Source: Candidatus Aminicenantales bacterium
Lineage (GTDB): Bacteria > Acidobacteriota > Aminicenantia > Aminicenantales > UBA8522
Direction of reading: 5' to 3'
DNA length: 64,000 nt
Assembly: GCA_049287565.1 (NCBI GenBank)
Contig: JBAQGA010000239.1
Span: forward strand, 1,522-65,521
Made by a program: the position numbers and the translations under genes. Below are positions 3,731-41,241 of the stretch, one piece after another (the first letter of the stretch is position 1; each line of letters opens with the position of its first letter). A model generated the notes under the pieces. It was not told the origin of the DNA and did not search any database. It saw nothing but the letters and a program-made list of their open reading frames with translations.

Positions 3731-6493
3731 ATGCAGATCCCCGCCTGGCACGCCGAAGACGTGGTCAAGGTCCTCCACCGCCTCCGTTCTGATCCGCGAC
3801 AAGGATTGGCCACCGAAGAGGTCGAAAAACGCCTGACTCAATTCGGCCCCAACGAGCTCAGGAAAGAGGAAAAAGCCTCTCCTTTCTCGCTTTTCCTCAG
3901 CCAATTCAAAAACGTACTTATCATCATCCTCCTCGCCGCCATCGTCCTCTCCGTCCTGATCGGGGAGGTCCTGGATGCCGTGATGATCAGCGCCATCGTC
4001 CTGTTCAGCGCCCTGCTCGGTTTCATCCAGGAGCACAAGGCCGAACAGGCTCTCGAGGCTCTCAAGAGGATGCTTTCGCCGATGATCACCGTCCTGCGAA
4101 ACGGGAAAGAAGAGGAGATCCCTTCTCGAGACCTGGTCCCGGGGGACATCCTTCTCCTCGAGGCCGGGGATAAGATCCCGGCGGATGCCCGACTGGTCGA
4201 GGTCCATCTGCTCGACTGCGACGAGGCCGCCTTGACGGGAGAGTCGGTCCCGGTCCGAAAAGAAACGGCTCCCCTCCGCTCCGATATTCTGGCGAGCGAC
4301 CGGAAGAACATGGTCTTCGCCGGGACGATCGTGACCTACGGACGGGGGAAAGCCGCCGTGACCGCGACGGGCATGAACACGGAATTCGGCCGGATCGCCG
4401 AGGAGGTCGCGGCCGCCGAAACCAAGAAAACACCGCTTGAGAAAAGGACGGAAGAGATCGGCCGATGGCTGGGCATCATGGCCGTATCGATCTGCGTTCT
4501 CGTGGCCGGGGTCAGTGCCCTCAGAAAGGCTTTTATCGGCCGGCTTAGCCTGGAATTCATGATCGACACGGTCATGTTCGCCGTCGCCCTGGCGATTGCC
4601 GCCGTCCCGGAGGCGCTGACGGCCATCGTGACGGGCGCGTTGGCCATCGGCATGCACCAGATGGCCAAACGCAATGCCCTGGTGCGCAAAATGCCCGCCG
4701 TGGAAACTCTGGGCTGCGCGACCGTCATCTGCTCGGACAAGACGGGGACCCTGACAAAGGGAGAGATGACGGTCCGGAAGATCTATGCCGCCGGGAACGA
4801 CCACGAGGTCAGCGGCGTCGGCTACGAACCCGTCGGGGAAATTCTGGGGGCAGAAAAGAAACCGGACCCCGACAGCCCCTTGGGAAGACTTTTCAAGGCG
4901 GCCCTGCTCTGCAACGATGCCCAGCTTCAAGAGATCGAGGGAAAGTGGACGATCAAGGGTGATCCGACAGAGGGCGCCCTGGTCGTGGTCGCAGCCAAAG
5001 CCGGCCTTCATGTGATCGAGACGAGGTTGAGTCACCCCCGCATCGAAGAGATCCCCTTCAGTTCGGAACGCAAGCGGATGACCACCATCCACGATGAGCC
5101 CGATGGCCGCAGGATCGCCTACCTCAAGGGCGCGCCCGAAGAGATTCTCGACCGCTGCCGCTTCCACTTGACCGAAAAGGGCGTCCTCCCCTTCTCGACG
5201 GAGGAAAAGGAAGCGGCTCTCGAGGCCAACCGGGGAATGGCTCAAGCGGCTCTGAGAGTCCTCGGCATGGCCATGAAATTCTTGCTGGCCGAGCACACTC
5301 GCTACTCGGAAGAAGACGAGCGGGGAATGGTTTTCCTCGGCCTGATCGGAATGATGGATCCCCCCCGGGCCGAAGCGATCGAGGCGGTCAAGACCTGCCA
5401 ACGGATCAAAATCCGAACGGTCCTGATCACCGGCGACCATGAAATCACCGCCCGGGCCGTGGCCGAGGAAATCGGGATTTACAGGGAGGGCGACCTCGTT
5501 CTGAACGGAGAAAAACTGGCCGCGATGAACGAGGGAGATCTTGAGAAAGTCGTCGACCGGGTGACCGTCTACGCCCGGGTTTCGCCGATCGATAAGCTCA
5601 AGATCGTCAGGGCATGGAAAAGCCGGGGTGAAGTTGTCGCGATGACGGGTGACGGGGTCAACGACGCCCCGGCCCTCAAGCAGGCGGATATCGGTATCGC
5701 CATGGGAATCACCGGCACCGAGGTGACCAAGGATGCGGCCGACCTGGTCCTCAGCGATGACAATTTTGCCACCATCCTGAAGGCCATCGAGAGGGGCCGC
5801 TGGATCTACGATAACATCAAGAAATATCTGACCTACCTGTTGCGCTGCAACATCACGGAGGTCGCCGTCATCGGCGGCATCGTCCTCATCAAAGGCCCCG
5901 ATTATCTCCCTCTCCTCGCGGCGGCGATCCTTTACATCAACCTGGCCACGGACGGACTGCCCGCCCTGGCCCTCGGCATCGCCCCGCCGGAACCCGATAT
6001 CATGGAGCGGCCGCCTCGAGATCCCCGGGAAAGCGTTTTTTCCTGGGATGTCAAAGCGTTCATCCTCATGGCCTTGGTGATCGAAACGCCCTTTTTCTAC
6101 CTGCTTTTTTTTCATGATTTTTCACACCTGGAACACGCCCGGACAGAGATCTTTTTCATGTTCATCATCGTCGAGCTGGTCATCGTTCTCAACTTCCGCT
6201 CGCTCAGGTTTAGCATCTTCAAGGTTCCGCCCCACCGCTGGCTGATTCTGGCCATTCTTTGGGAGCTTGTTCTTGTCTCTGTTCTTGTCCGGATCCCTTC
6301 GGTGCGAGATGCTTTTGGCATTCTTATCCCGACGATTTCCGACCTGGGGATCATCTTCGGGTTCAGTATTTTTGTCTTTGCGGCCATGGAGATTGCGAAA
6401 GCGGCGCTGCGGAGGAAACTCGCCCGGGCGGACCGCCGCGACGGCCTCTCCGAGCGCGGCGGAAGGGCATCGAAATCATCCGCTAAGGACTGA
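3731..6493 (+). CDS. P-type (E1-E2) cation-transporting ATPase, P2-type, probably Ca2+
   Basis: DKTGTLT phosphorylation motif (ICSDKTGTLTKGEM). TGDGVNDAPALKQADIGIAMG hinge motif. A PEAL motif in TM4 and ten predicted TM segments. About 920 aa. Confidence 0.9.
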   Translation: MQIPAWHAEDVVKVLHRLRSDPRQGLATEEVEKRLTQFGPNELRKEEKASPFSLFLSQFKNVLIIILLAAIVLSVLIGEVLDAVMISAIVLFSALLGFIQEHKAEQALEALKRMLSPMITVLRNGKEEEIPSRDLVPGDILLLEAGDKIPADARLVEVHLLDCDEAALTGESVPVRKETAPLRSDILASDRKNMVFAGTIVTYGRGKAAVTATGMNTEFGRIAEEVAAAETKKTPLEKRTEEIGRWLGIMAVSICVLVAGVSALRKAFIGRLSLEFMIDTVMFAVALAIAAVPEALTAIVTGALAIGMHQMAKRNALVRKMPAVETLGCATVICSDKTGTLTKGEMTVRKIYAAGNDHEVSGVGYEPVGEILGAEKKPDPDSPLGRLFKAALLCNDAQLQEIEGKWTIKGDPTEGALVVVAAKAGLHVIETRLSHPRIEEIPFSSERKRMTTIHDEPDGRRIAYLKGAPEEILDRCRFHLTEKGVLPFSTEEKEAALEANRGMAQAALRVLGMAMKFLLAEHTRYSEEDERGMVFLGLIGMMDPPRAEAIEAVKTCQRIKIRTVLITGDHEITARAVAEEIGIYREGDLVLNGEKLAAMNEGDLEKVVDRVTVYARVSPIDKLKIVRAWKSRGEVVAMTGDGVNDAPALKQADIGIAMGITGTEVTKDAADLVLSDDNFATILKAIERGRWIYDNIKKYLTYLLRCNITEVAVIGGIVLIKGPDYLPLLAAAILYINLATDGLPALALGIAPPEPDIMERPPRDPRESVFSWDVKAFILMALVIETPFFYLLFFHDFSHLEHARTEIFFMFIIVELVIVLNFRSLRFSIFKVPPHRWLILAILWELVLVSVLVRIPSVRDAFGILIPTISDLGIIFGFSIFVFAAMEIAKAALRRKLARADRRDGLSERGGRASKSSAKD

Positions 6494-19681: not shown

Positions 19682-20977
19682 ATGGCCTTATTTCAGAAAA
19701 AGAAAAGAACGCGGACCTGCATCATCGGCCTGGACGGAGTCCCCTACTCTCTCGTCCTCGAGCTGGCCGACCGGGGGATTATGCCGTCGTTGGCCGGACT
19801 CCTCAAGAGCGGCCACCTGCACAGGATGAAGGCCAGCCTCCCCGAGATCTCGGCCGTGTCCTGGACGGATTTCATGACCGGTGTGGATTCCGGCTCCCAC
19901 GGCATCTTCGGGTTCAGCGACCTCAAGCCCGGCTCCTACGGGATGCGTTTCCCCAATTTTTCCGACGTCAAGCGGGAGACCATCTGGGACATCCTGGGGA
20001 AGCAGGGACGGAAATCGATCATCATCAACCAGCCCTCGACCTATCCGGCCCGTCCCCTTAACGGCGTGCTGATTGCGGGGTTCGTCGCCCTCGACCTCGC
20101 CAAAGCCGTCTTCCCCCTGTCACAGAAAACAGCGCTGGAGCGGCTGGGCTACCGGATCGATATCGATACCATGAAGTCCCGGGAAGACCACGCCTTCCTC
20201 TGGCAGGAGCTCCAGACGACCCTGGACGGCCGGGAGAAGGCGCTGGACCACTTCTGGAAAGAGGACTGGGATTATTTCGAGTTCGTCATCACCGGGACCG
20301 ACAGGCTCCATCATTTTCTCTGGAACGCCTATGCGGATGAAAGCCATTCCTTTCATGCCAAATTCCTGGATTATTACCGCCGGGTCGACGGGATCATCGG
20401 CCGGATCGTCCGCTCCTTCCGCAGCTTGAGGGGAAGCGACGGCGGCCTCCATCTCCTTTCCGATCACGGCTTCTGTCAGATCGAGCAGGAGGTCTATCTC
20501 AACGCCTGGCTCGAGGAGAAAGGTTATCTCCGCTTCAGCGGCGAGACGCCCGGCGAACTCGGAGACATCGCCGCCGGCAGCGTCGCCTTCGCCCTGGACC
20601 CGAACCGGATCTATCTTCACCTCGTGGATCGTTTTCCAAAAGGCGCCGTCACTCCGGCCGACCGGCCGGCGCTGAAAGAAAGAATCTCCCGGGAACTCAA
20701 GGAGCTGACCTTTGAGGGTCGTCCGGTCATCCGCCGCGTCTTCGATGCGGAGAAGACCTATTCCGGTCCGTTTGTCCCCTCCGGGCCCGACCTCCTCGTC
20801 CTGGCCGAACCCGGTTTCGACCTCAAAGGGTCGATCAAGAAGAAAGATGTTTTCGGCCGGACCAACCTGGAAGGCATGCATACCTGGGACGACGCCTTCT
20901 TCTGGGCTGACCGGAAGGTTGGAGACGACCTGAGGATCAGTCAGCTGTCCGCCCACATCCTGAGCCATTTCTCATGA
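19682..20977 (+). CDS. Alkaline-phosphatase superfamily, type I phosphodiesterase/nucleotide pyrophosphatase (NPP) family protein, cytoplasmic paralog
   Basis: Shares IIGLDG, a Thr-nucleophile region (SAVSWTDFMTGVDSGSHGIFGF), LLSDHGF and a C-terminal GMHTWDD metal-ligand motif with the two downstream paralogs. No signal peptide. 431 aa. Confidence 0.7.
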   Translation: MALFQKKKRTRTCIIGLDGVPYSLVLELADRGIMPSLAGLLKSGHLHRMKASLPEISAVSWTDFMTGVDSGSHGIFGFSDLKPGSYGMRFPNFSDVKRETIWDILGKQGRKSIIINQPSTYPARPLNGVLIAGFVALDLAKAVFPLSQKTALERLGYRIDIDTMKSREDHAFLWQELQTTLDGREKALDHFWKEDWDYFEFVITGTDRLHHFLWNAYADESHSFHAKFLDYYRRVDGIIGRIVRSFRSLRGSDGGLHLLSDHGFCQIEQEVYLNAWLEEKGYLRFSGETPGELGDIAAGSVAFALDPNRIYLHLVDRFPKGAVTPADRPALKERISRELKELTFEGRPVIRRVFDAEKTYSGPFVPSGPDLLVLAEPGFDLKGSIKKKDVFGRTNLEGMHTWDDAFFWADRKVGDDLRISQLSAHILSHFS

Positions 20978-23118
20978 ACAAAAACTTTCCAACACGAACA
21001 CTTCTCATCGTTATAGGACTCCTTTTTTGTTGCGGCCTGCCCGCCCAGGCATACATAGGTCCGGGCGCCGGGTTCGCTTTTCTCTCCTCGTTCCTCGTCT
21101 TTTTCCTCACCTTTTTCCTGGCCGTTTTCTCTTTTCTTTCCTGGCCTTTTCGCCTGCTCATCCGGATGATCAAGGGCCGAAGAACACTCAAGGGTGCGCT
21201 CGTCGACAAGGTGGTCATCATCGGACTGGACGGGCTCGAACCCACGCTGGCCGAAAAATTCATGAGCGAGGGCAAGCTCCCCCATCTCTCCAGGCTTAAG
21301 AAAGAAGGCACCTACGCGCGCCTCCAGACAACGACCCCGGCCATCTCGCCGGTGGCCTGGTCGTCTTTCATGACCGGCTCCGAGCCGTCCAAACACAACA
21401 TCTTCGATTTTCTCAGCCGTGACCCGCGGACCTACCTCCCCTCCCTGTCGTCCGCCTATATCGGCCGTCCGAAAAGAGTCCTTTCCCTAGGGAAGTACTC
21501 CATTCCTCTGTCCAAGCCCGAGATCCGGGGGATGAGGAAGAGCGTACCCTTCTGGAAGACCCTGGGAGATGCCGGCATCTTCAGCACCGTCCTCCGCGTG
21601 CCGATCACCTTTCCGCCGGAAAAATTCTCCGGCCACCTCCTCTCCGGGATGTGCGCGCCGGACCTCAAGGGGAGCCAGGGAACGTTCGCTTTTTACACCA
21701 CCGACTCGGCCAAGATAACGAAGCGGGAGGGCGGAGTGGCCATTCCTGTCGAGGTCCGGGATGACCGGGTGGAAACCTATATTTCCGGGCCGGAAAATTC
21801 ACTCATCAAGAGCGCTCCGGAGATCCGCATCCCCCTGAGGATCGAGATCCGCCGGGAAAAACGCGAGGTCAGAGTCCACGTTTCCGGCCAACGATTCGAC
21901 CTCCGGGCCGGCGAGTTCTCTCCCTGGACCCGGATCGTCTTCAAGCCGGGGCTGGGGATGAAGGTCAAAGCCGTTGCCCGCTTCTATGTCTCCTCGCTCG
22001 ACCCTCACTTCGAGATGTACATGACCCCCTTGAACATCGATCCGGAGAAACCGGCCCTGCCCATCTCTCATCCTTTTATCTATTCCGTCTATCTCAGCAA
22101 GCTCCTGGGAAGTTTCATCACCCTCGGCGAAGCCAACGATACCTGGGCCCTGAACGAGGGCGCGCTCAAAGAGGCTCCCTTCCTCGATCTCACCTATTCC
22201 AACCACAGGGAATGGGAAGCGATGCTTTTCAACGCCCTGGCCAAGACGAAAAGAGGAACCGTTATCTGCGTTTTCGAGACCACCGACAGCATCCAACACA
22301 TGTTCTGGAGGTATCTGGACAAGGCCCATCCGGCCCTCCGGACGACGTCACCGGAGATGAGCTCCCAGGTCATCGAGGACCTCTACACAAAGATGGATGA
22401 CCTGATCGGCCGGGTCAGGGCCAAGCTCGACTCCCGGAGCGCCCTCATCGTCATGTCGGACCACGGCTTCAAGTCCTTCCGCCGGGGCGTCAACCTCAAC
22501 TCCTGGCTCTATCTCAACGGCTATCTGAGTCTCAAAGACGGGAAGACCGCAAGTGAAGAATGGTTCAAGGACGTGGATTGGGAGAAAACCAGAGCCTATG
22601 CCCTGGGGCTGGGAGGGCTGTACATCAACCAAAAGGGCCGGGAAGCAAAAGGCATCGTCGGGGCCGGAGAAGAAACGCGGGCCCTCAAGGCGGAACTGAT
22701 CACCAAACTCAACCGGCTTCGGGACGAGGCCGCCGGCGACGTCGCCATCACCGAGGCTTATGACCGTGACCGGATCTATGCAGGACCGTACGTCCATAAC
22801 GCGCCCGACCTCGTCATCGGCTACAACCAGGGGTTTCGGGCCTCCTGGGATTCGGTGACGGGAAAGGTCAACGGCACCATCTTCGAAGACAATATCAAGG
22901 CCTGGAGCGGCGACCACTGCATCGATCCCCGGCACGTCCCCGGCGTTTTCTACTTCAGCCGGAAGACGGCTTCCAAGACGCCTTCGATCATGGATGTGGC
23001 GCCGACCGTTCTGACCCTCTTCGGGCTTCCGGCGCCGGCCCACATGGACGGCCGTCCGCTCCTGGATTCGGAGGCGCCGCCTGAAACACCGCCAAGAAAT
23101 AAAGGAGATAAAAAATGA
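20974..23118 (+). CDS. NPP/alkaline-phosphatase family protein, membrane-anchored paralog with an inserted beta-rich domain
   Basis: N-terminal TM segments. VIIGLDGLEP, TTPAISPVAWSSFMTGSEPSKHNIF, VMSDHGFKSF and WSGDHCIDP motifs. An insert of about 250 aa relative to paralog 1. ATGA overlap with the upstream gene. Confidence 0.7.
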   Translation: MNKNFPTRTLLIVIGLLFCCGLPAQAYIGPGAGFAFLSSFLVFFLTFFLAVFSFLSWPFRLLIRMIKGRRTLKGALVDKVVIIGLDGLEPTLAEKFMSEGKLPHLSRLKKEGTYARLQTTTPAISPVAWSSFMTGSEPSKHNIFDFLSRDPRTYLPSLSSAYIGRPKRVLSLGKYSIPLSKPEIRGMRKSVPFWKTLGDAGIFSTVLRVPITFPPEKFSGHLLSGMCAPDLKGSQGTFAFYTTDSAKITKREGGVAIPVEVRDDRVETYISGPENSLIKSAPEIRIPLRIEIRREKREVRVHVSGQRFDLRAGEFSPWTRIVFKPGLGMKVKAVARFYVSSLDPHFEMYMTPLNIDPEKPALPISHPFIYSVYLSKLLGSFITLGEANDTWALNEGALKEAPFLDLTYSNHREWEAMLFNALAKTKRGTVICVFETTDSIQHMFWRYLDKAHPALRTTSPEMSSQVIEDLYTKMDDLIGRVRAKLDSRSALIVMSDHGFKSFRRGVNLNSWLYLNGYLSLKDGKTASEEWFKDVDWEKTRAYALGLGGLYINQKGREAKGIVGAGEETRALKAELITKLNRLRDEAAGDVAITEAYDRDRIYAGPYVHNAPDLVIGYNQGFRASWDSVTGKVNGTIFEDNIKAWSGDHCIDPRHVPGVFYFSRKTASKTPSIMDVAPTVLTLFGLPAPAHMDGRPLLDSEAPPETPPRNKGDKK

Positions 23119-25100
23119 GCAGCATGAATAGACGGGAATTCCTCAAACAAGGCCTGGCCGCCTCTTCCTTGCTGGCTGCCGGTAGCGGCCTCGCGCCTCT
23201 TCTTCGCGGCTCCGGCAGGAGCGCGACCAGGGCCAAGGTGCTGGTCCTCGGGTTCGACGGCCTGGACCCGAAGCTCCTCTATCGCTGGCTGGATGAAGGA
23301 AAACTGCCGTCCTTCGCCCGGCTCATCGCAGCCGGAGGTTTCCGGCCGCTCGGCACAAGCATTCCACCGCAAAGTCCAGTGGCCTGGTCGAATTTCATCA
23401 CCGGCACCGACCCGGGAGGTCACGGCATCTTTGACTTCATCCACCGCGACCCGAACACCTACATCCCTATTTTCTCCGCCACCCTCTCAACCGAGGCCAA
23501 GAAAGCACTCAAGATCGGCGACCTTGTGCTTCCCTTGAGCGGCGGCGAGGTCAAGAACCTGATCCAGGCGAAGGCGTTCTGGCAGGTCCTGGAAGAGCAC
23601 GATATCCCGGCCACCGTTTTCAAGATGCCTTCGAACTATCCACCCGTTCCGACCAAACAGCGGACCCTTTCCGGCATGGGTACGCCCGACCTCAAAGGAA
23701 GCTACGGAATCTCCTGTTTCTATACGACCGATCCCGATATGCCCAAGGGAGAGCTTTCTGGCGGGAGGGTTTATGAGGTCTACGTTATCGGGAACCGGGT
23801 CGAGGCCAAGCTTCCCGGACCGGTCAACACTTTCAAGAAAGACCGGCCGGAAGCCCTCATTGACTTTCAGGTCTTCGTCGATCCCGTCCATCCGATGGCC
23901 AAAGTCGTCCTGCCGGACCAGGAATTTATCATCAAGGAAAAGGAATGGAGCGGCTGGAAGAGGGTCAATTTCGGCCTCATCCCGACTCAGAGTGTAAGCG
24001 GGATCTGCATGTTCTACCTCAAGGAGGTCCGTCCCCATTTCAAGCTCTATGTCAGCCCCATCAATATCGACCCGGCTCATCCGGCCCAGCCGATCTCGAC
24101 TCCGGGAAGCTACGCCCAGGAGCTGGAGCGGGTCTTCGGGCCCTTCTTCACCAAGGGCCTTCCGGCCGACACCTCGGCCCTCGACAACAATGTCCTCGAC
24201 GAGGAAGAGTTCCTGGAGCAGGACGACATGATCCTGCGGGAGCGCGAGCAGATGTTCGACTACGAGTTCAAGCGTTTTGAATCCGGACTTCTTTTCTATT
24301 ACGTTTCGAGTACCGACCAACGTCAGCACATGTTCTGGCGTTTGCTGGACGAGATGCACCCGGAATACGACCCCCGGCTCGCCGCTCGCTACGGGCGGAC
24401 CATCGAAAACATCTACGTCGAAGCAGACCGCTTCCTCGGGCGGGTTCTGCCGAAGATCGACAAGGAAACTGTGCTCCTGGTCATGTCCGACCACGGATTC
24501 AATCCCTTCCGCCGGGCCTTCAACCTCAACACTTGGCTTTTCGAGAACGGATACCACAGGCTGCGCAACCCCTGGAAACAGGGGGAAGGGAGTTTCTTTG
24601 ATAACACCGATTGGTCGAGGACGAAAGCCTATGGGATCGGCCTCAACGGCCTCTATATCAACCAGAGGAGCCGGGAGAGAGAGGGAATCGTCAATCCCGG
24701 AGCCGACAGCGCGAATCTGATCCGGGAGATCGCCCAGAAGCTCGAACAGACGGTCGATCCCAAGACGGGTGAGCGGGCCATCCTCCGGGCTTTCATCTCC
24801 AAGGACGTCTATCACGGTTCCCAGATCGAACACGCCCCCGACATCATCTGCGGCTTCAACAAGGGCTATCGCATATCCTGGGATTCGCCCCTCGGCAAGT
24901 TCCCCAAAGATATCTTTTTAGATAACGGCGAGAAGTGGAGCGGCGACCATATGGGCGCTCCCGAGGTCCTCCCCGGGATCCTGGCCGCCAACCGCCCCAT
25001 CCGGGCCGACGCTCCGGCCCTCTACGACTTGACGGCCACGATCCTCGACTTATTCGGCCTCCCCAAGACGAAAGAGATGATCGGAAAACCCGTTTTTTGA
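23115..25100 (+). CDS. NPP/alkaline-phosphatase family protein, Tat-exported paralog
   Basis: Twin-arginine signal MNRREFLKQGLAASSLLAAGSGLA. LVLGFDGLDP, SIPPQSPVAWSNFITGTDPGGHGIF, VMSDHGFNPF and WSGDHMGAP motifs. ATGA overlap with the upstream gene. Confidence 0.7.
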   Translation: MSSMNRREFLKQGLAASSLLAAGSGLAPLLRGSGRSATRAKVLVLGFDGLDPKLLYRWLDEGKLPSFARLIAAGGFRPLGTSIPPQSPVAWSNFITGTDPGGHGIFDFIHRDPNTYIPIFSATLSTEAKKALKIGDLVLPLSGGEVKNLIQAKAFWQVLEEHDIPATVFKMPSNYPPVPTKQRTLSGMGTPDLKGSYGISCFYTTDPDMPKGELSGGRVYEVYVIGNRVEAKLPGPVNTFKKDRPEALIDFQVFVDPVHPMAKVVLPDQEFIIKEKEWSGWKRVNFGLIPTQSVSGICMFYLKEVRPHFKLYVSPINIDPAHPAQPISTPGSYAQELERVFGPFFTKGLPADTSALDNNVLDEEEFLEQDDMILREREQMFDYEFKRFESGLLFYYVSSTDQRQHMFWRLLDEMHPEYDPRLAARYGRTIENIYVEADRFLGRVLPKIDKETVLLVMSDHGFNPFRRAFNLNTWLFENGYHRLRNPWKQGEGSFFDNTDWSRTKAYGIGLNGLYINQRSREREGIVNPGADSANLIREIAQKLEQTVDPKTGERAILRAFISKDVYHGSQIEHAPDIICGFNKGYRISWDSPLGKFPKDIFLDNGEKWSGDHMGAPEVLPGILAANRPIRADAPALYDLTATILDLFGLPKTKEMIGKPVF

Positions 25101-33783: not shown

Positions 33784-34710
33784 TTATTTCCCCACGAGAT
33801 AATCGAAGACGGCCTGGAGGTTGTCGTCGGGCGAGGTGATCTCCTCGACTTCCATCTTGGTCTTGACGAGCAGGCTCAGGAGCCGGGCAAAAAATTTATC
33901 CCGGTTGGTGGTCTCGACCAGGAGGGATCTCGCGTCCGGCCCGAAATACACTTTCAAGACGTTATCCTCGCCCAGGAACTGAGCGGCCAGGCCCCGCGGG
34001 TCGGCGCACTTGATGGCCACCATGTGGGGATGCGTCTCGATGAGGTCCCGGATATAGTGGATGTCCCCCCGGGCAAAGATTTTTCCCTGATGGATCAGGA
34101 TGATGTTTCTGGTGAGGGCCTCGATCTCGGGGAGGACGTGGCTGGAAACGATCACCGTCTTGCCCTCCTCCTTGTATGTCTTGATCAGGCGAATGAGTTT
34201 CCGTTTCCCCAGCGGGTCCAGGCCGCTCATCGGTTCGTCCAGGATGATGATCTCCGGATCATGGGCGATGGCCTGGGCGAACTTGAGCCTCTGGCGCATT
34301 CCCCGGCTGTAGGCCCGGACCAGCCGGTCGCGATCGGTCGAGAGCTCGACGATTTCGAGCGTTTTCTCCGCCCGCGAACGGACTTCGGCCGGCGCGAATC
34401 CGTGGAGCCTGAGAAGGCTGGTCAGGAAAACCCAGCCCGTCATGTCCTCGTAGAAGGAGTCGTGTTCGGGGCAAAACCCGATGCGGGAAAAAAGGGACGG
34501 GTTGTTCTGGACCTTCTGGCCGAGGATCCGGACGGTGCCGATGCTGGGCCGGATCTGTCCGGTGAGGAGCTTGAGAAAGGTCGATTTGCCGGCGCCGTTC
34601 GGCCCTAGGAGGCCGCTGATCCCGGGCTCGACCTCGATGGTGACATCGCTCAGCCCGAGGACGTTCCCGTACCATTTGGAAAGGCTGGAGGTCTGGATCA
34701 CGGCCGTCAT
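33784..34710 (-). CDS. ABC transporter ATP-binding protein
   Basis: Walker A GPNGAGKST. ABC signature YSRGMRQRL. Walker B ILDEP. Confidence 0.9.
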   Translation of the reverse strand: MTAVIQTSSLSKWYGNVLGLSDVTIEVEPGISGLLGPNGAGKSTFLKLLTGQIRPSIGTVRILGQKVQNNPSLFSRIGFCPEHDSFYEDMTGWVFLTSLLRLHGFAPAEVRSRAEKTLEIVELSTDRDRLVRAYSRGMRQRLKFAQAIAHDPEIIILDEPMSGLDPLGKRKLIRLIKTYKEEGKTVIVSSHVLPEIEALTRNIILIHQGKIFARGDIHYIRDLIETHPHMVAIKCADPRGLAAQFLGEDNVLKVYFGPDARSLLVETTNRDKFFARLLSLLVKTKMEVEEITSPDDNLQAVFDYLVGK

Positions 34711-35582
34711 TTGGCGACCTCCACACCCCGGACTTTCTTGTTCAGAACAGCGGCTGCCGCCACTCCGACGGCCAGGAGGATGAGGAACGACCAGTACCAG
34801 GGAACTGCGTACTCTGGCTTGAGTTTAAAGAACCAGGCTGCGACCTGCTGCAAGTTCGTTCTTATGGAAAGCAGGGCATAGGCTGGATCCTTCTTGATGT
34901 TCTCGAAGAAGAACCTGAAGAGGATCTCGGAGAAGAAATAGATCGCAAAAATCAGGATGGAGACATATCTCCTGTTCTTGCTCAGCGAGGACAAGAGCAA
35001 CGTATAGGAGCAGAAAAATCCGGTGACGAACAAGGAATAGCCGATGACCGAGAGCGGCAGCCAGGGATAGGTCATAAGGAGATGGAAGTTCCCGGCGAAA
35101 AGGAGCTTGAAGAGGATGAAGACCAGCCCGGGGACGAGCGTAATCAGGAGGAGGAAAAAGACAATGACGTTCGCCTTGCCGAGGAGGTAATCGCTCTTTC
35201 GGAGCGGACGGGCGAAATAGAGCTGGAGGGAATTGTGCTTAAGGTCGTCGGCGATCAATCCCGCCCCGCTGACCAACAGGATCATCACCATCATGAAGAG
35301 CATGCCGTTCCAGCTCAGGTAAACTTTAAAAAAGGCCGGATTGACCTCGAGGACCGCGCTTTCGCCGTTGATCATATAGCGGAAGTCCTCGATCCGCTCT
35401 GAAACATAGATGCCGACGAGAAACACAAACGCAAGCCCGAGAGCGCTGAACAGGATGAACTTGAAATACTTCCTCTTGAAGGCCAGCCGGATACCCAGCC
35501 AGGTGATCGGCCACCAGGGGAACCGCTTCTCTTTCAACTCCCCGTCCCAGTGCATGTAGCCTTTCTCTCGGATGGTCATCAA
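34707..35582 (-). CDS. ABC-2 family transporter permease (second cassette)
   Basis: Polytopic membrane protein (291 aa). Overlaps neighbours by 4 nt on both sides. Confidence 0.7.
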   Translation of the reverse strand: MMTIREKGYMHWDGELKEKRFPWWPITWLGIRLAFKRKYFKFILFSALGLAFVFLVGIYVSERIEDFRYMINGESAVLEVNPAFFKVYLSWNGMLFMMVMILLVSGAGLIADDLKHNSLQLYFARPLRKSDYLLGKANVIVFFLLLITLVPGLVFILFKLLFAGNFHLLMTYPWLPLSVIGYSLFVTGFFCSYTLLLSSLSKNRRYVSILIFAIYFFSEILFRFFFENIKKDPAYALLSIRTNLQQVAAWFFKLKPEYAVPWYWSFLILLAVGVAAAAVLNKKVRGVEVAK

Positions 35583-36490
35583 TCCACTCCCACCGTCTGA
35601 GCAAAAAAATCTTCGAGCGAGGTCTGGCTTCGCACGAAATGGCGCACCTGGACCTTCACCTGCTCCGCGGCCGCCAGGATCTCCCGCGCATCCATGTCCG
35701 CAGGCATGTAGACCTTCAGAAGCTTGTCGGCCGTTTCCTCGACGCGGCAGCCGAGCGCTTTGAGCCTGCCGCTGAATCCTTCCCCTTCTCCTTTTATCCG
35801 GACCTCGTAAAGGCGATAGTCAAGAGTCCTGAGCTCGCTCAGCTTTCCCTGCGCGGCCAATCGCCCCTTGTTCAGGATGATCACATCAGAGCAGACGGAC
35901 TCGATGTCCGAGAGGATGTGGGATGAGACAAGGACCTGGATCTCCTTTTTCGAAGAGATATCCCGGATGAGCTCGAGGACCTCTTTCCGGCCCTGCGGAT
36001 CGAGATTGCTGGTCGGCTCGTCGAGGAAGAGGAGCTTCGGATCGTGGACGATCGCCTGGGCCAGCTTGAGACGCTGTTTCATGCCGGCCGAATAGGACTC
36101 GAGAGGGCGGTAGCGCGACTCCCCGAGCCCGACATAAAAAAGGACGTCGTGAGTCCTCTTCATTGCTTCCTGACGGGGCATTCCGGAAAGCTCGCCGAAA
36201 TGGGCGGTGAAGGTCACGGCGTCCATGCCCGGTATCAGACAATCGTCTTCCGGCATGTAGCCGACATGGCGGCGGATGCGAGGCTGTTCCAGCCGGATGT
36301 CGTAGCCGAGGACCCGTCCTCGACCTTTCTGGGGAACTAGGAAACCGAGAAGGATGCGGAGGAGCGTGCTTTTACCGGCCCCGTTCGGGCCGAGCAGGCC
36401 GACCGCTCCTTCCGCCATTCTCAGCGTAATTCCATCCAGGGCCTTGCTGCGGCCGTACGAGAACTGAAGGTCGGAGACCTCGACGATCAT
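35579..36490 (-). CDS. ABC transporter ATP-binding protein (second cassette)
   Basis: Walker A GPNGAGKST. Signature YSAGMKQRL. Walker B FLDEPTSNLD. Confidence 0.9.
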   Translation of the reverse strand: MIVEVSDLQFSYGRSKALDGITLRMAEGAVGLLGPNGAGKSTLLRILLGFLVPQKGRGRVLGYDIRLEQPRIRRHVGYMPEDDCLIPGMDAVTFTAHFGELSGMPRQEAMKRTHDVLFYVGLGESRYRPLESYSAGMKQRLKLAQAIVHDPKLLFLDEPTSNLDPQGRKEVLELIRDISSKKEIQVLVSSHILSDIESVCSDVIILNKGRLAAQGKLSELRTLDYRLYEVRIKGEGEGFSGRLKALGCRVEETADKLLKVYMPADMDAREILAAAEQVKVQVRHFVRSQTSLEDFFAQTVGVD

Positions 36491-36576: not shown

Positions 36577-38175
36577 TCAGCCGGAGACGCGGCTGCCTAC
36601 TCCCTGAACGAGGGCCCGATAGGCCTTCTCCACGCGGTCCCAGTTGTCCTCCCGGTCAAGGGACCAGTGGCGGCCCATGACCGTGACCATTTCCCCCAGA
36701 CCCAGCTTCCGGCCCATCTCTTCGACCTTTTCTACGTAGATCGCGCCGCTTTCGGGCTTCTCTCCCCGGCGGCCGATGAACCCGTGGATATAGACTTCCT
36801 CCAGGCCCTGCTCTTTGGTCAGACGCATCAGGGCAAAAAGATGTCTCAGAGTACCGTGCGAGCTGTAATGCGAGACGATGCCCATGAGGTGGAGAGGTCT
36901 CTTTGCGACCTTGGCTTCTTCTATCGCCCAGAGGAAAGCCTGATTGCGGAAGAAGCTGCCGTCTTCGACCGCTCGGTCGATTTTGACGCGGTCCAAAGAG
37001 ACGCGCCGGCCGGCCCCGAGATGAAGGTGCCCGGCCTCGGAGTTGCCGACGGCATGAGCGGGCATCCCGACCGCTTCCCCGGAAGCCTGGAGAACCGCGT
37101 GCGGAAACTCCGACCAAAAAGCGTCGAAATGCGGCGTCCGCGCTTCCCGGATGATATTGCCGAAAGCTTCGTCCCGGTGTCCCCAGCCATCCAGGATAAG
37201 CAGGACGACTCTGGGCGTTGGAACCAGCGGACGGGGCCGGAGGATGAGGCTTTGACCCGTCATCTCGACCGGGCGGGGCAGACCGAGCAGGTCCAGCACG
37301 GTCGGAGCGACGTCGGCCAACTCTCCCTCCGCTCTCAAAGTGGGCTTCTCCCATCCTTTCCTGAAATCAGCCAGAATAAACGGTGCCGGATTCCTGGTGT
37401 GCCCGGTATTGATGGTTCCGTCGGGATAGAGCCACTCCTCAACGGTGCCGTGGTCAGATGTCACGATCAGAGTCACGGCTTGGCGGCGGCATTCTGAGGC
37501 GATCACCCCCAGAGCCACATCCGTCTCCTCAACCGCTCTCAGGACGGCCGGGCGGTCTTCGATATGACCGATCACATCGACGTTGGCCAGGTTGGCGATG
37601 ACCACGGGATAGGCGGGGTCCTGGATCTTTGAAAGGACCTCTCGGGCCACCGCAGCAGCGCTCATCTCCGGCGTCTGGACATAGGACGAAACACCCTGAG
37701 GCGAGGGAACGATGAACCTTTCCTCTCCAGGAAAGATATCATCCCGTTTCCCGTTCAGGAAATGGCCGATATGAACGGCCTTTTCGGATTCGGCCACCTT
37801 GGCCAGGCGAAGCCCGGCGCGGCAAATGACCTCGACGAGGGTGTTGCGGAGCCTATCCTCGGCCGGGAAGGCGACCCGCACATCGAGAGATGGATCGTAG
37901 GTGATCATGGTGACGAAATGAAGCCGGCGGGCCTTTTTGCGCCCGAAATGAGGGAAATCCCTCTCGATCAGGCTCCGGGTCAGCTCGACCTCACGCTCTC
38001 CCCTGATATCATAAAAAATGACGCTGTCGCCGTCGCCGATTCGTCCCCGGGGGCGGCCGGAAGTGTCGACTTTGATGATCGGCTCCAGGGCCTCGTCCTC
38101 CTGCCCCAGCTTGTAGGCTTCTCTGATGGCGCCGGCAAGAGTTATTCTCCGGAACGGCGTCGATTTGTCCTTCAT
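36577..38175 (-). CDS. gpmI: 2,3-bisphosphoglycerate-independent phosphoglycerate mutase (iPGM) homolog with circularly permuted domain order
   Basis: All canonical iPGM blocks are present in one 532-aa ORF but in the order C-part then N-part. Residues 1-300 match the canonical C-terminal phosphatase half (VIFYDIRGER..., VIANLANVDVIGH, TSDHGT, APTVLDLLGLPRPVEMTGQSLIL). A Pro-rich linker RPRPLVPTP follows. Then come the canonical N-terminus (VVLLILDGWGHRDE, GNSEAGHLHLGAGR) and the transferase domain (HGFIGRRG, DNWDRVEKAYRAL). I re-translated the junction from the DNA and it is in frame. Confidence 0.8.
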   Translation of the reverse strand: MKDKSTPFRRITLAGAIREAYKLGQEDEALEPIIKVDTSGRPRGRIGDGDSVIFYDIRGEREVELTRSLIERDFPHFGRKKARRLHFVTMITYDPSLDVRVAFPAEDRLRNTLVEVICRAGLRLAKVAESEKAVHIGHFLNGKRDDIFPGEERFIVPSPQGVSSYVQTPEMSAAAVAREVLSKIQDPAYPVVIANLANVDVIGHIEDRPAVLRAVEETDVALGVIASECRRQAVTLIVTSDHGTVEEWLYPDGTINTGHTRNPAPFILADFRKGWEKPTLRAEGELADVAPTVLDLLGLPRPVEMTGQSLILRPRPLVPTPRVVLLILDGWGHRDEAFGNIIREARTPHFDAFWSEFPHAVLQASGEAVGMPAHAVGNSEAGHLHLGAGRRVSLDRVKIDRAVEDGSFFRNQAFLWAIEEAKVAKRPLHLMGIVSHYSSHGTLRHLFALMRLTKEQGLEEVYIHGFIGRRGEKPESGAIYVEKVEEMGRKLGLGEMVTVMGRHWSLDREDNWDRVEKAYRALVQGVGSRVSG

Positions 38176-38350
38176 AATGCGTCCTGAAATGAAGCCATAC
38201 TATAGGAGGAGCAGCACTGGATGTCAACTTGGCGCGATCACGAAGGCTTAGCTCTCCCGAGGCGTTTTCTCGAGATGAGCAGCCCCTATTATTTTGACCC
38301 AGGCGAAGGGCTTGGATGAGGAAGTCCGTTAACGACTAAGCGGAGGGTTT

Positions 38351-38413
38351 GGGGCAGTGGCATCGAAACCGTGCCCGCTCTCTCCTCATACGGATTTCTC
38401 CAGCCACTGCCCC
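38351..38413. repeat. Perfect 11-bp inverted repeat (GGGGCAGTGGC...GCCACTGCCCC) with a 41-nt spacer, inside a 470-nt non-coding region
   Basis: Read directly from the sequence. Followed by an A-run on the plus strand. The arrangement is not canonical intrinsic-terminator geometry for either strand. Located in the 5' region of the minus-strand iPGM gene. Confidence 0.5.
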
Positions 38414-38648
38414 TCACCTCATAAAAAAACAAAGCAAGCATATTCTCTCAAACAAGGCGAGAGGTATAGGCGCAGAAGGTCATCCGGAGGCGAGCGGGCA
38501 GGGATCCTCGAAGCGGAGAGCGAGCCGAGGAAATAAGCGAATTTATCTCGCCGGGGGAAATTCGCGGGCCTTCGGGCCTATACCCCGAGCCTCAACGGCG
38601 TTAAGAACCTGAGCGGAAGCGCTGACATTCCCAAGTTGTCTCTCATCA

Positions 38649-39539
38649 TCATTCCGGAAGACTGAGTTCCAGCAAGGCCTGAGGATCGACCCGGCTGCCC
38701 AGGATCCTTACCGCCCAGTGGAGATGCGGGCCGGTCGAGCGGCCGGTGCTCCCGGCCAGCGCGAGGATATCGCCCTTCTTGACGTCTTGGCCCCTGCTCA
38801 CCTTGAGCCGCGAAAAATGGCAGTAGATGCTGAATACCCCCAGGCCGTGGTCGAGGATAACCGTTTTTCCGGAAAAATAAAGATCCCGGGCCAAGACGAC
38901 CCGGCCGGAGTTGGACGCCCGCACCGGCGAACCGAAGGGGGCCGCGATATCGAGGCCCGAATGAGAAGAGCGGGGGACCCCGTTGTAGATCCTCCTCTCG
39001 CCGAAATTGCCGGCGTTCTCGCCGGGATGAGGCCACTCGAAAGCGCCTTCTCCGAGCCACGTCTCGGTGATCACGCTGTAGACCATCTGGAGAAGCTCGG
39101 ACTCCCAGCGGATGCGCTCCTCGACCTCGGGAGGCGGGGTGACGAATTCCTGTTTAACCCGGAGCTTCTTAACGGGGAATTCGCGATCCCCTACCAACAG
39201 GCGGTGTCTCAGCTCTTCGACCCGGCCGTCCCGGAGGAAAACGGTTATCTTGAGGTCATGCGATCCCGGTTTGAGGCCCAGATCAAGACCGATCAAGGCG
39301 AACGCTTCGCTTCCCTCTTGCCCCATCCTCAATTCGTAAACGGCGTCCCCGAAACCGATGACGACCCTCTTGGCCCCGGACGCTTGAACCAGCCTGGCCA
39401 GGAGAATCCGGCCCGGTTCAAGAGAGGGCGCGATGAGCTCGACCTCGATGCCGCAGGCGAACCGGACGACCGCGTTATCTGCGCCGCTGGAGGGGATCAG
39501 CATCAAGAGGAATAGAACCTGAGGGAAAACCCTTTTCAT
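38649..39539 (-). CDS. M23 family (LytM-like) metallopeptidase
   Basis: Signal peptide MKRVFPQVLFLLMLIPSSGA. HxxxD and GSTGRSTGPHLHWAV (HxH) M23 motifs. Confidence 0.85.
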   Translation of the reverse strand: MKRVFPQVLFLLMLIPSSGADNAVVRFACGIEVELIAPSLEPGRILLARLVQASGAKRVVIGFGDAVYELRMGQEGSEAFALIGLDLGLKPGSHDLKITVFLRDGRVEELRHRLLVGDREFPVKKLRVKQEFVTPPPEVEERIRWESELLQMVYSVITETWLGEGAFEWPHPGENAGNFGERRIYNGVPRSSHSGLDIAAPFGSPVRASNSGRVVLARDLYFSGKTVILDHGLGVFSIYCHFSRLKVSRGQDVKKGDILALAGSTGRSTGPHLHWAVRILGSRVDPQALLELSLPE

Positions 39540-39543
39540 GCCG

Positions 39544-41241
39544 CTAGACCTTTTTTCTGAGGACCCGGCCGGGAAGTAGGCCCGTATGTTCCCCACCTTC
39601 AATTACGACCTGTCCGTTGACGATCACATATTCGATGCCAACCGGATATTGGTGAGGCTCGACCCAAGTGGCTCGGTCGGCGATCCTTTCCGGATCGAAG
39701 ATCACCAGGTCGGCAAAAGCGCCGGGTCTGATGACACCTCTTCTCTCAAACCCGAACCGGGAGGCCGGGACGGACGTCATCTTCCTGATCATCTCCTCGG
39801 CCGGCACGATTTTCTCCTCCCGGACATACTTCCCGAGAATGCGCGGGAAGGTGCCGTAGTTCCGGGGATGAGGGCGGCTTCGGCTCAGGATCCCGTAGGG
39901 AGCGACCGCCGAGCCGTCGCAGCCGACACCGACCAGCGGATGGGCCAGGACTTTTTTCAGGTTGTTCTCAGCCATCATGAAGGCGATCATCCCGACCATC
40001 GCTTTTTCCTCAATGAGCAAATCCCTCATGAAATCATAGGGCTTTTTCCCCGCTTGGCCGGCCGCCTCGAGGACTGTCTTTCCCTGAAGATGTCGCTTCT
40101 TCTCCGAGGGAATCGAAGACAACAGGATCTTATCCCAGGAACCGATCTTCTCTTCCTGGGAGGCGAGATGAGCCCGCAGCCTGGAATCGAGCGCCGGGTC
40201 CTGGAGGCGGCGAATGAAGTCGTCCGTCGTCCCTTCTTTGGACCACATCGGGAAATAAAGGCTGAGACCTGTCGACCCCGCGATATAGGGATAGCGGTCG
40301 CAAAAAATGTCAACGCCATCCTCTTTTGCCTGTTCGATCTTGGCCAGCGCGGGGCCCAGCTTTGCCCAATTCCGGGGATAGGCCGCCTTGAAGTGGGAGA
40401 TCTGAAGCCGGATGCCGGAGAGACGCGCCGTTTCGATCGCCTCTTCGAGCGACTCGAGGAGGCCGTCACCTTCATCCCGCATGTGAGTCGCGTAGACACC
40501 GCCTGTGGCGGCCGCGCCCCGGCATAGCTCGACGATCTCGTCAGCTCCGGCAAAGCTCCCGGGCGCGTATTCGAGACCGGTCGACATCCCGAAGGCGCCA
40601 GCTCGAATACATTCTTCGACCAGCTGCACCATTCGCTTCAGTTCTTCGGGCGTCGGGGGACGGTCCCCGAAACCCATGACCGCGCCCCGGATCGACCCGT
40701 GACCGACAAGAGTGGCATAGTTCATAGCGATCCCGCTGGTCTCAAGGCGGGCGAAGAACCCGGTCAGGTTTTTCCAATCGAGGTCGATTTCATAGAATGC
40801 CTTGATATTCTCTTTTTCCTCGTCGAAGGTCACTTCCGCGATCGGGAAGGGCGAACTGCCGCATTGGCCGCTGACGACGAGGGTGATCCCCTGATGGACC
40901 AGGCTTTCCGCCCGGGGATTAACGAGCAGGCTGATATCGGAATGATCATGAACATCGATGAACCCGGCCGAAACGGCCAGGCCTTGCGCATCGATGACCC
41001 CCCGTGCCTGGCTGGCCTTCACCCGCCCGATCTTTCTGATCAAATCGCCCGCGACCGCGATGTCGGCCCGGACCGGTGGGCCGCCCAGTCCGTCGTAAAC
41101 CAGGCCGTTCTTGACGACCCAATCGAATTGTTTCTTAGAAAAACACCCTTGAAGCAAAGGACCGCAGCCCGTCAGTCCGGCGACGGCTGCCGCCTTGGCC
41201 GTCTGCTTCAAAAAAACCCGTCTCGGTAGAGGTTTGTCCAT
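39544..41241 (-). CDS. N-acyl-D-amino-acid deacylase (D-aminoacylase) family amidohydrolase, Tat-exported
   Basis: Twin-arginine signal RRVFLKQTAKAAAVAGLTG. Amidohydrolase metal-binding HxH (IDVHDHSD). D-aminoacylase-like length and insert. The start was trimmed to Met 65 of the long ORF. Confidence 0.7.
   Translation of the reverse strand: MDKPLPRRVFLKQTAKAAAVAGLTGCGPLLQGCFSKKQFDWVVKNGLVYDGLGGPPVRADIAVAGDLIRKIGRVKASQARGVIDAQGLAVSAGFIDVHDHSDISLLVNPRAESLVHQGITLVVSGQCGSSPFPIAEVTFDEEKENIKAFYEIDLDWKNLTGFFARLETSGIAMNYATLVGHGSIRGAVMGFGDRPPTPEELKRMVQLVEECIRAGAFGMSTGLEYAPGSFAGADEIVELCRGAAATGGVYATHMRDEGDGLLESLEEAIETARLSGIRLQISHFKAAYPRNWAKLGPALAKIEQAKEDGVDIFCDRYPYIAGSTGLSLYFPMWSKEGTTDDFIRRLQDPALDSRLRAHLASQEEKIGSWDKILLSSIPSEKKRHLQGKTVLEAAGQAGKKPYDFMRDLLIEEKAMVGMIAFMMAENNLKKVLAHPLVGVGCDGSAVAPYGILSRSRPHPRNYGTFPRILGKYVREEKIVPAEEMIRKMTSVPASRFGFERRGVIRPGAFADLVIFDPERIADRATWVEPHQYPVGIEYVIVNGQVVIEGGEHTGLLPGRVLRKKV

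Follow-up and report, generated by a model that had tools for sequence, protein, structure and literature searches.

The gene described here occupies positions 36577-38175, on the minus strand, of a 64,000-nucleotide stretch of contig JBAQGA010000239.1 from a Candidatus Aminicenantales bacterium, which will be referred to as the window. It is a complete gene for a cofactor-independent phosphoglycerate mutase (iPGM) whose sequence is circularly permuted, and judging from the sequence and its relatives it is probably a genuine, vertically inherited circular permutant of GpmI that functions as a phosphoglycerate mutase (PGM). The permuted order is present in the sequence far beyond chance, and it is inherited and under selection. 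We further infer that the fold closes as in 1EJJ, the structure of a canonical iPGM, that phosphoglycerate is the substrate and that the protein serves as the glycolytic PGM of the cell.

The gene consists of one uninterrupted open reading frame (ORF) of 532 amino acids (aa) plus stop codon, and plus-strand translation of the same positions is riddled with stops. Since the ORF opens at the first start codon past an upstream in-frame stop, it conceals no N-terminal extension. When the protein was compared by phmmer with all PDB sequences, residues 323-528 aligned with residues 6-211 of 1EJJ (independent E-value 4e-60) and residues 16-312 with residues 219-510 (1e-58), the reference being the 511-aa enzyme of Geobacillus stearothermophilus (Bst). 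An earlier note on this DNA had proposed a circularly permuted iPGM in a single frame and had suggested a protein search for two non-collinear segment pairs; exactly two such pairs were obtained on 1EJJ, within one ORF. Likewise, tblastn with Bst iPGM on the window yielded two blocks in the same frame, at 38130-37237 and 37209-36607. Both Pfam domains were recognized far over their gathering scores and each in two stretches, iPGM_N (PF06415) with 177 bits (5e-52) and Metalloenzyme (PF01676) with 175.7 bits (1.5e-51), and residues 399-527 matched positions 1-129 only of the 217 positions of the iPGM_N profile. The NCBIfam model TIGR01307 (pgm_bpd_ind) reached 457.7 bits, summed across two stretches, against a cut-off of 330.65. 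Once un-permuted, the protein is ~42% identical end to end with the Bst enzyme; the numbering of the Bst sequence used for this alignment agrees with the phmmer PDB alignment. The collinear order of canonical iPGMs (phosphatase-N, transferase, phosphatase-C) is rotated in the 532-aa protein.

Jedrzejas et al. 2000 are said to have placed the phosphatase domain of 1EJJ at residues 1-76 and 311-511 and the transferase domain at residues 77-310. Read against these limits, the alignments divide the protein into five parts, all encoded on the minus strand. Residues 1-105 (37861-38175) comprise the new N-terminus and the C-terminal third of the transferase domain (1EJJ ~219-310) with Arg58 and Arg61. 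Residues 106-312 (37240-37860) represent the C-terminal part of the phosphatase domain (1EJJ 311-511) and carry Lys132, Asp200, His204, Asp241, His242 and His259. The linker RPRPLVPTPR (residues 313-322; 37210-37239), unaligned between the two segment pairs, leads from the ancestral C-terminus to the ancestral N-terminus and is followed by residues 323-393 (36997-37209), the N-terminal part of the phosphatase domain (1EJJ 6-76) with Asp329 and Ser379 (codon 37039-37041). Residues 394-532 (36580-36996), assigned by the alignments and Pfam, correspond to the first two thirds of the transferase domain (1EJJ 77-~213) with His440, Arg470, Gly471, Arg502 and Arg508, and end in the new C-terminus. 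The junction EMTGQSLIL-RPRPLVPTP-RVVLLILDGWG quoted in the earlier note was found at residues 304-332, and, as had been claimed there, the old C- and N-termini, which are both part of the phosphatase domain, are indeed connected by a Pro-rich linker.

The new C-terminus (...WDRVEKAYRALVQGVGSRVSG) corresponds to 1EJJ ~213 and the new N-terminus (MKDKSTPFRRITLAG-AIREAYKLG...) to 1EJJ ~217, the break falling at 1EJJ ~211-218 in the loop between the WDRVEKAY helix and the next helix. Given the reported 1EJJ domain limits and the split of the iPGM_N profile at 129/217, this break lies inside the transferase domain (77-310), not exactly at its end, where it had originally been placed. Two hinges join the iPGM domains (PMC5382265), and both interdomain hinge peptides remain continuous chain in the 532-aa protein, at approximately residues 393/394 and 105/106. 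As read from the alignments, the permutation shifts the chain ends from the phosphatase to the transferase domain and appears to leave the tethering of the domains unaltered. Among 44 aligned family members the linker is hypervariable in sequence, with P, S, K and R as frequent residues, but constrained in length, with 16-20 aa for the bracketing segment and about 9-10 aa for the linker itself in the 532-aa protein. This combination of variable sequence and constrained length suggests a passive surface connector.

The metal ligands and the nucleophile are all present, D329, S379, D200, H204, D241, H242 and H259 matching Bst D12, S62, D403, H407, D444, H445 and H462, respectively. As phosphoglycerate-binding residues we take Bst H123, R153, D154, R185, R191, R261, R264 and K336, following the 1EJJ/1O98 literature. 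Seven of these eight are kept, since H440, R470, R502, R508, R58, R61 and K132 match H123, R153, R185, R191, R261, R264 and K336; the remaining one, Asp154, is replaced by Gly471, which sits in a GRRGE motif that is invariant in the 44-sequence family alignment. In total, 14 of the 15 Bst residues with a catalytic or binding role are kept, and every one of these 14 is invariant in the 44 family members. The GNSEAGH, TSDHG and WDRVEKAY blocks were all found in the 532-aa protein, as the earlier note had stated, but its wider statement that all catalytic blocks are retained has to be qualified by the loss of Asp154.

An AlphaFold2 model calculated from the 44-sequence alignment is confident and iPGM-like in its predicted fold, with a mean predicted local distance difference test score (pLDDT) of 85.5 and a predicted template modelling (TM) score (pTM) of 0.83. 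The block covering the linker (residues 311-320) has a pLDDT of 78 between flanks of 95 and 94, and the bordering strands are predicted confidently. In a Foldseek search against the PDB the closed, substrate-bound structures 1EJJ and 1O98 ranked first (311 columns, root mean square deviation 2.5 Å, TM 0.52-0.54). A TM of ~0.5 is as expected, since a sequential aligner can use just one of the two permuted segments.

On this basis the chain would start in a loop at the surface of the transferase domain (~1EJJ 215), run through the last third of that domain and pass, by way of hinge 2, into the C-terminal portion of the alkaline-phosphatase-like domain. The short, variable Pro/Arg/Lys-rich linker would then bridge the old C- and N-termini, followed by the N-terminal phosphatase part with Asp329 and Ser379, from which the chain would pass over hinge 1 and end after two thirds of the transferase domain. 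Two Mn2+ would be held by D329/S379/D241/H242 and by D200/H204/H259. Phosphate would move from 3-phosphoglycerate (3PG) to Ser379, the Arg/His/Lys cage of the transferase domain would re-orient the glycerate and the phosphate would be returned to yield 2-phosphoglycerate (2PG), with domain closure occurring about two intact hinges. With both hinges and the complete binuclear metal site in place, the protein is expected to adopt the usual two-domain clam shape and to interconvert 3PG and 2PG via phosphoserine.

Nevertheless, several findings weigh against a functional GpmI permutant. Asp154 is present in 119 of 124 canonical representatives and is Gly or Ser across the permuted clade, in which six more near-invariant canonical positions are systematically altered (H128, M189, N259, D263, G409 and N447). 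The stricter equivalog model NF003897 gave 358 bits and stayed below its cut-off of 862. The Foldseek superposition on 1EJJ covers one of the two segments only, the aligner being sequential; the M23 peptidase/ABC-2 transporter surroundings of the gene are not glycolytic; and NCBI labels many members of the family 'hypothetical protein', 'alkaline phosphatase family protein' or 'sulfatase-like hydrolase'. The protein might instead be a neofunctionalised paralogue, which would combine the iPGM fold and phosphoserine chemistry with another phospho-substrate or another regulation, glycolytic PGM being supplied by another enzyme. Such a paralogue would fit a clade that is well separated (199 of 200 neighbour-joining (NJ) bootstraps) and in which seven near-invariant positions have changed in concert, several of them beside substrate-binding residues: D154 to G/S, N259, D263 to E beside R261/R264, and N447 beside D444/H445. 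It would also fit the failure to reach the strict equivalog cut-off and the gene neighbours, which are non-glycolytic here and include an adjoining PPDK_N giant protein or phosphohexomutase in other phyla. However, the seven Arg, Lys and His residues that hold phosphoglycerate in 1EJJ are all kept and invariant, the TIGR01307 cut-off is passed, and the gene is apparently a stable core gene of the class, with 535 species-genome matches and fixed synteny. Moreover, tblastn with Bst iPGM and E. coli GpmA detected no second PGM in the 64-kb window. A neofunctionalised paralogue is the main alternative but appears improbable, and we favour the permuted GpmI acting as PGM.

The permuted order is shared by many relatives. 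Among 5.8 billion proteins, one identical to the query (P0001) was found in an NCBI metagenome-assembled genome (MAG) labelled 'Candidatus Aminicenantales bacterium', as were at least 120 more protein clusters elsewhere with 64-92% identity and lengths of 520-560 aa, which gave one collinear alignment over 97-100% of the query; the clusters with permuted order originate from NCBI, JGI, ENA and Logan assemblies. Scanning one genome per GTDB species for the family peptides NSEAGHLH and FYD[IL]RGERE yielded 535 confirmed species-genome stretches. All locus counts on neighbours and order given here refer to the best 80 of these 535, every one of which is collinear over residues ~1-530, so that the search for same-order homologues in related bins recommended in the earlier note was clearly positive. 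The best 80 include six closed chromosomes of 3.2-4.4 Mb (OY970261.1, CP070825.1, OY969586.1, OY969696.1, OY970122.1 and OY969762.1) and the single-cell-derived Ca. Aminicenans sakinawicola. The ratio of nonsynonymous to synonymous substitution rates (dN/dS) was 0.13-0.20 in comparison with orthologues at 75-92% identity, and it was alike overall and in each half. Furthermore, tblastn of the window with Bst iPGM found no iPGM-like remnant flanking the gene, the upstream spacer included.

These data leave practically no room for an assembly or annotation artefact, whether the junction were chimeric, a tandem duplication had collapsed or a stop or frameshift between two neighbouring genes had been overlooked. 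The single-ORF order recurs in 80 of the 80 best species genomes, which were obtained in many projects and with many assemblers, purifying selection is equally strong on the two halves and the linker length is kept. A mis-join or a pair of adjacent genes was rejected since the permuted order occurs in many independent assemblies, closed chromosomes among them, and in view of the dN/dS values. A decaying pseudogene left by rearrangement is just as implausible, given the intact ORF, the low dN/dS, the invariant catalytic residues and a near-consensus promoter upstream.

The taxon labels of MAGs among the permuted iPGM records are unreliable. The closest relative (L008, DATKXS010000128.1), with 92% aa identity and the same synteny, is labelled 'Candidatus Desulfaltia sp.' (Desulfobacterales), and dozens of unmistakable members of the family go under 'uncultured Eubacteriales' or 'Clostridiales'. 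One MAG, PFL55 (JALHUR01), carries the permuted gene on two contigs (L046 and L078), which might be explained by strain heterogeneity, contamination or a true duplication.

When the search was widened to 1.84 billion representatives (50% identity level), a single full-length alignment was obtained for ~20 of the 150 best matches, whereas canonical iPGMs give two stretches. According to BLAST, those ~20 are all permuted in one loop, the first block beginning at Bst 215-235 and the second extending to Bst 208-218. Members were found in Ca. Desulfofervidus auxilii (HDD45277.1, UniRef A0A7C0Y5T5), in a Pseudomonadota MAG (NIS61405.1) and in Limnochordia (MDI9450044.1 and others), the latter on 254 contigs, one of 2.5 Mb; most of these members go by 'hypothetical protein' at NCBI. 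The 532-aa protein and nine other representatives, designated Group I, have derived states at H128, D154 (G/S), M189 (L), N259, D263 (E), G409 and N447, seven positions that are each at least 93% conserved in the 124 canonical sequences, and the motif S-SHG replaces G-VHS. Group I is the clade recovered by the bootstraps given above; it appears to be a deep permuted clade and also has members in Limnochordia, Desulfofervidus and other MAGs.

A second set of permutants, Group II, consists of P0142, of P0151 with P0155, and of a module within P0176. The family of P0151, which includes P0318 and P0320, comprises four full-length clusters with 83-100% identity on contigs of up to 512 kb, and its next relatives are canonical at ~50%. 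Group II resembles the 532-aa protein in overall length and linker style, and the same loop is broken to within ~5 residues. Unlike the 532-aa protein, it keeps every canonical state, including D154, VHS, RxDRA and AETEK, and it clusters with canonical sequences in NJ trees. All 13 permutants formed one clade in 1 of 200 NJ bootstraps, which leaves a single origin unsupported, though this tree is a crude one on distances near saturation. The simplest reading of the sequences would be one old permuted clade and at least one or two younger, independent permutations in the same loop. P0176 itself is a predicted protein of 5027 aa with repeated modules and membrane segments, in which the permuted iPGM module, with canonical motifs, is embedded at ~3857-4375; it could be a true fusion or an artefact of gene calling.

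A bolder proposal, which we regard as rather doubtful, is that Group I represents an ancient, functionally distinct iPGM branch with a remodelled pocket, which would extend over Aminicenantes, Limnochordia, Desulfofervidus and further uncultured lineages, and that the same loop has been permuted independently at least two or three times. If so, the pocket, remodelled by the loss of Asp154 and by concerted changes next to Arg261/Arg264 and Asp444/His445, would be a sign of another substrate or another catalytic regime, and iPGM would provide a natural case of recurrent, site-specific permutation in a hinge-bending enzyme.

iPGM is a textbook example of a two-domain, hinge-closing glycolytic enzyme and a drug target, and natural circular permutations are known in many protein families. 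The 532-aa protein has in common with canonical GpmI/GpmM (1EJJ/1O98) the two Pfam domains, the Ser nucleophile, the six His/Asp metal ligands and both hinges, and differs in the rotated order, the termini in the ~211-218 loop, the fused old termini and Gly in place of Asp154. With ApgM (TIGR00306) and the phosphopentomutase DeoB it shares the alkaline-phosphatase core and metal-ligand motifs (weak matches, E 1e-5 to 1e-8); their scores are far under the cut-offs and they have another cap domain, so that neither represents the family of the protein. A search of the literature turned up no paper on a permuted iPGM, such a form is not mentioned in a survey of 338 reviewed iPGMs, and in the literature on Aminicenantes glycolysis no gene-level statement on PGM was found. 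The earlier note likewise knew of no described permuted iPGM, but the order is not rare: hundreds of genomes in the databases carry it. Permuted iPGM sequences are public and numerous, being common to hundreds of Aminicenantes genomes and a few other lineages. JGI names members iPGM; given the NCBI labels cited above, metabolic reconstructions of Aminicenantes, Limnochordia and similar groups may wrongly call the PGM step missing. With termini located within the mobile transferase domain, the fold would tolerate re-threading at that loop, which would be useful for protein engineering and folding studies. If the concerted changes in the active site alter specificity, the family would represent a new enzyme activity in a well-studied superfamily.

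The minus-strand order around the gene is M23-family peptidase gene (38649-39602), 473-nt spacer, permuted iPGM, 86-nt gap, ABC-transporter ATPase gene (35579-36490) and ABC-2 permease gene (34707-35582), all neighbours being ORFs on the minus strand. In 74 of the 80 related loci the permuted gene is followed, in the same orientation, by a homologue of the ABC ATPase gene (median distance 91 nt), and in 48 it is preceded by an M23 gene, at a distance that varies. The same order was found for a 68%-identical orthologue (L001), where the upstream gene, on which Pfam recognizes Peptidase_M23, lies 33 nt ahead. At that locus the pair of ABC ATPase and ABC-2 permease genes is doubled (two pairs).

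Other permutants have different neighbours. The Group II gene P0151 overlaps the stop of pgi by 4 nt (L002, 6556-9626), and this pgi locus is the only clearly glycolytic neighbourhood seen among the permutants. One Group I gene from Limnochordia is followed by a phosphohexomutase gene, and on Desulfofervidus-like contigs the start of the Group I gene is overlapped by a giant gene encoding 2142-2401 aa with PPDK_N (phosphoenolpyruvate/pyruvate-binding) (L006, 839-8044; L007, 389-6817). This overlap suggests translational coupling and a possible functional link. The pgi, phosphohexomutase and PPDK_N neighbours are weak hints at central carbon metabolism.

The intergenic spacer that separates the iPGM gene from the M23 peptidase gene (38176-38648, minus strand) is lineage-specific and mostly non-conserved; it measures 473 nt here, 393 nt in the closest relative L008, 33 nt in L001 and 65 nt in both L010 and L011. 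A sigma-70-like promoter, TTGACA-17 nt-TATAGT, is predicted at 38199-38227 on the minus strand; it matches 11 of 12 consensus positions and ends 24 nt before the ATG. Four promoter-like sites were counted in the upstream region against 0.5 expected from shuffles. In comparison with the four closest relatives (L008-L011), conservation is confined to the promoter-proximal ~65 nt. The inverted repeat at 38346-38418 has 16-nt arms (38346-38361 and 38403-38418) separated by 41 nt and a perfect core of 11 bp (GGGGCAGTGGC/GCCACTGCCCC). Its fold barely beats shuffles (z -2.1), no U-run follows it on either strand, and it is not kept in relatives. No Rfam family reached its gathering threshold anywhere in the window; the single Rfam match with E<1 in the spacer, to a miRNA model, was dismissed as chance. 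A long structured 5′ leader or riboswitch was rejected on these grounds, together with the non-conserved spacer and the 33-65-nt spacers of relatives. The long 5′ non-coding region with a perfect 11-bp repeat that had been noted earlier is thus real, but a long leader is unlikely with the promoter so close to the ATG and only ~65 nt conserved. Rather than a long 5′ untranslated region, the spacer resembles a fast-evolving stretch that was inserted recently ahead of the promoter, and a small inserted element may have left it behind. Three imperfect inverted-repeat pairs are found within it.

The tblastn searches for a PGM also gave two weak C-terminal matches at 20974-25100, which were assigned to secreted phosphodiesterase-like proteins and not to PGMs. 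They belong to two tandem, overlapping plus-strand genes (20974-23118 and 23115-25100) that encode alkaline-phosphatase superfamily paralogues of 714 and 661 aa. In these paralogues, which resemble type I phosphodiesterases, the N-terminus carries a signal or transmembrane segment; all that they have in common with iPGM is the C-terminal motif 'MSDHG ... APT.L.LFGLP' (tblastn E 1e-4).

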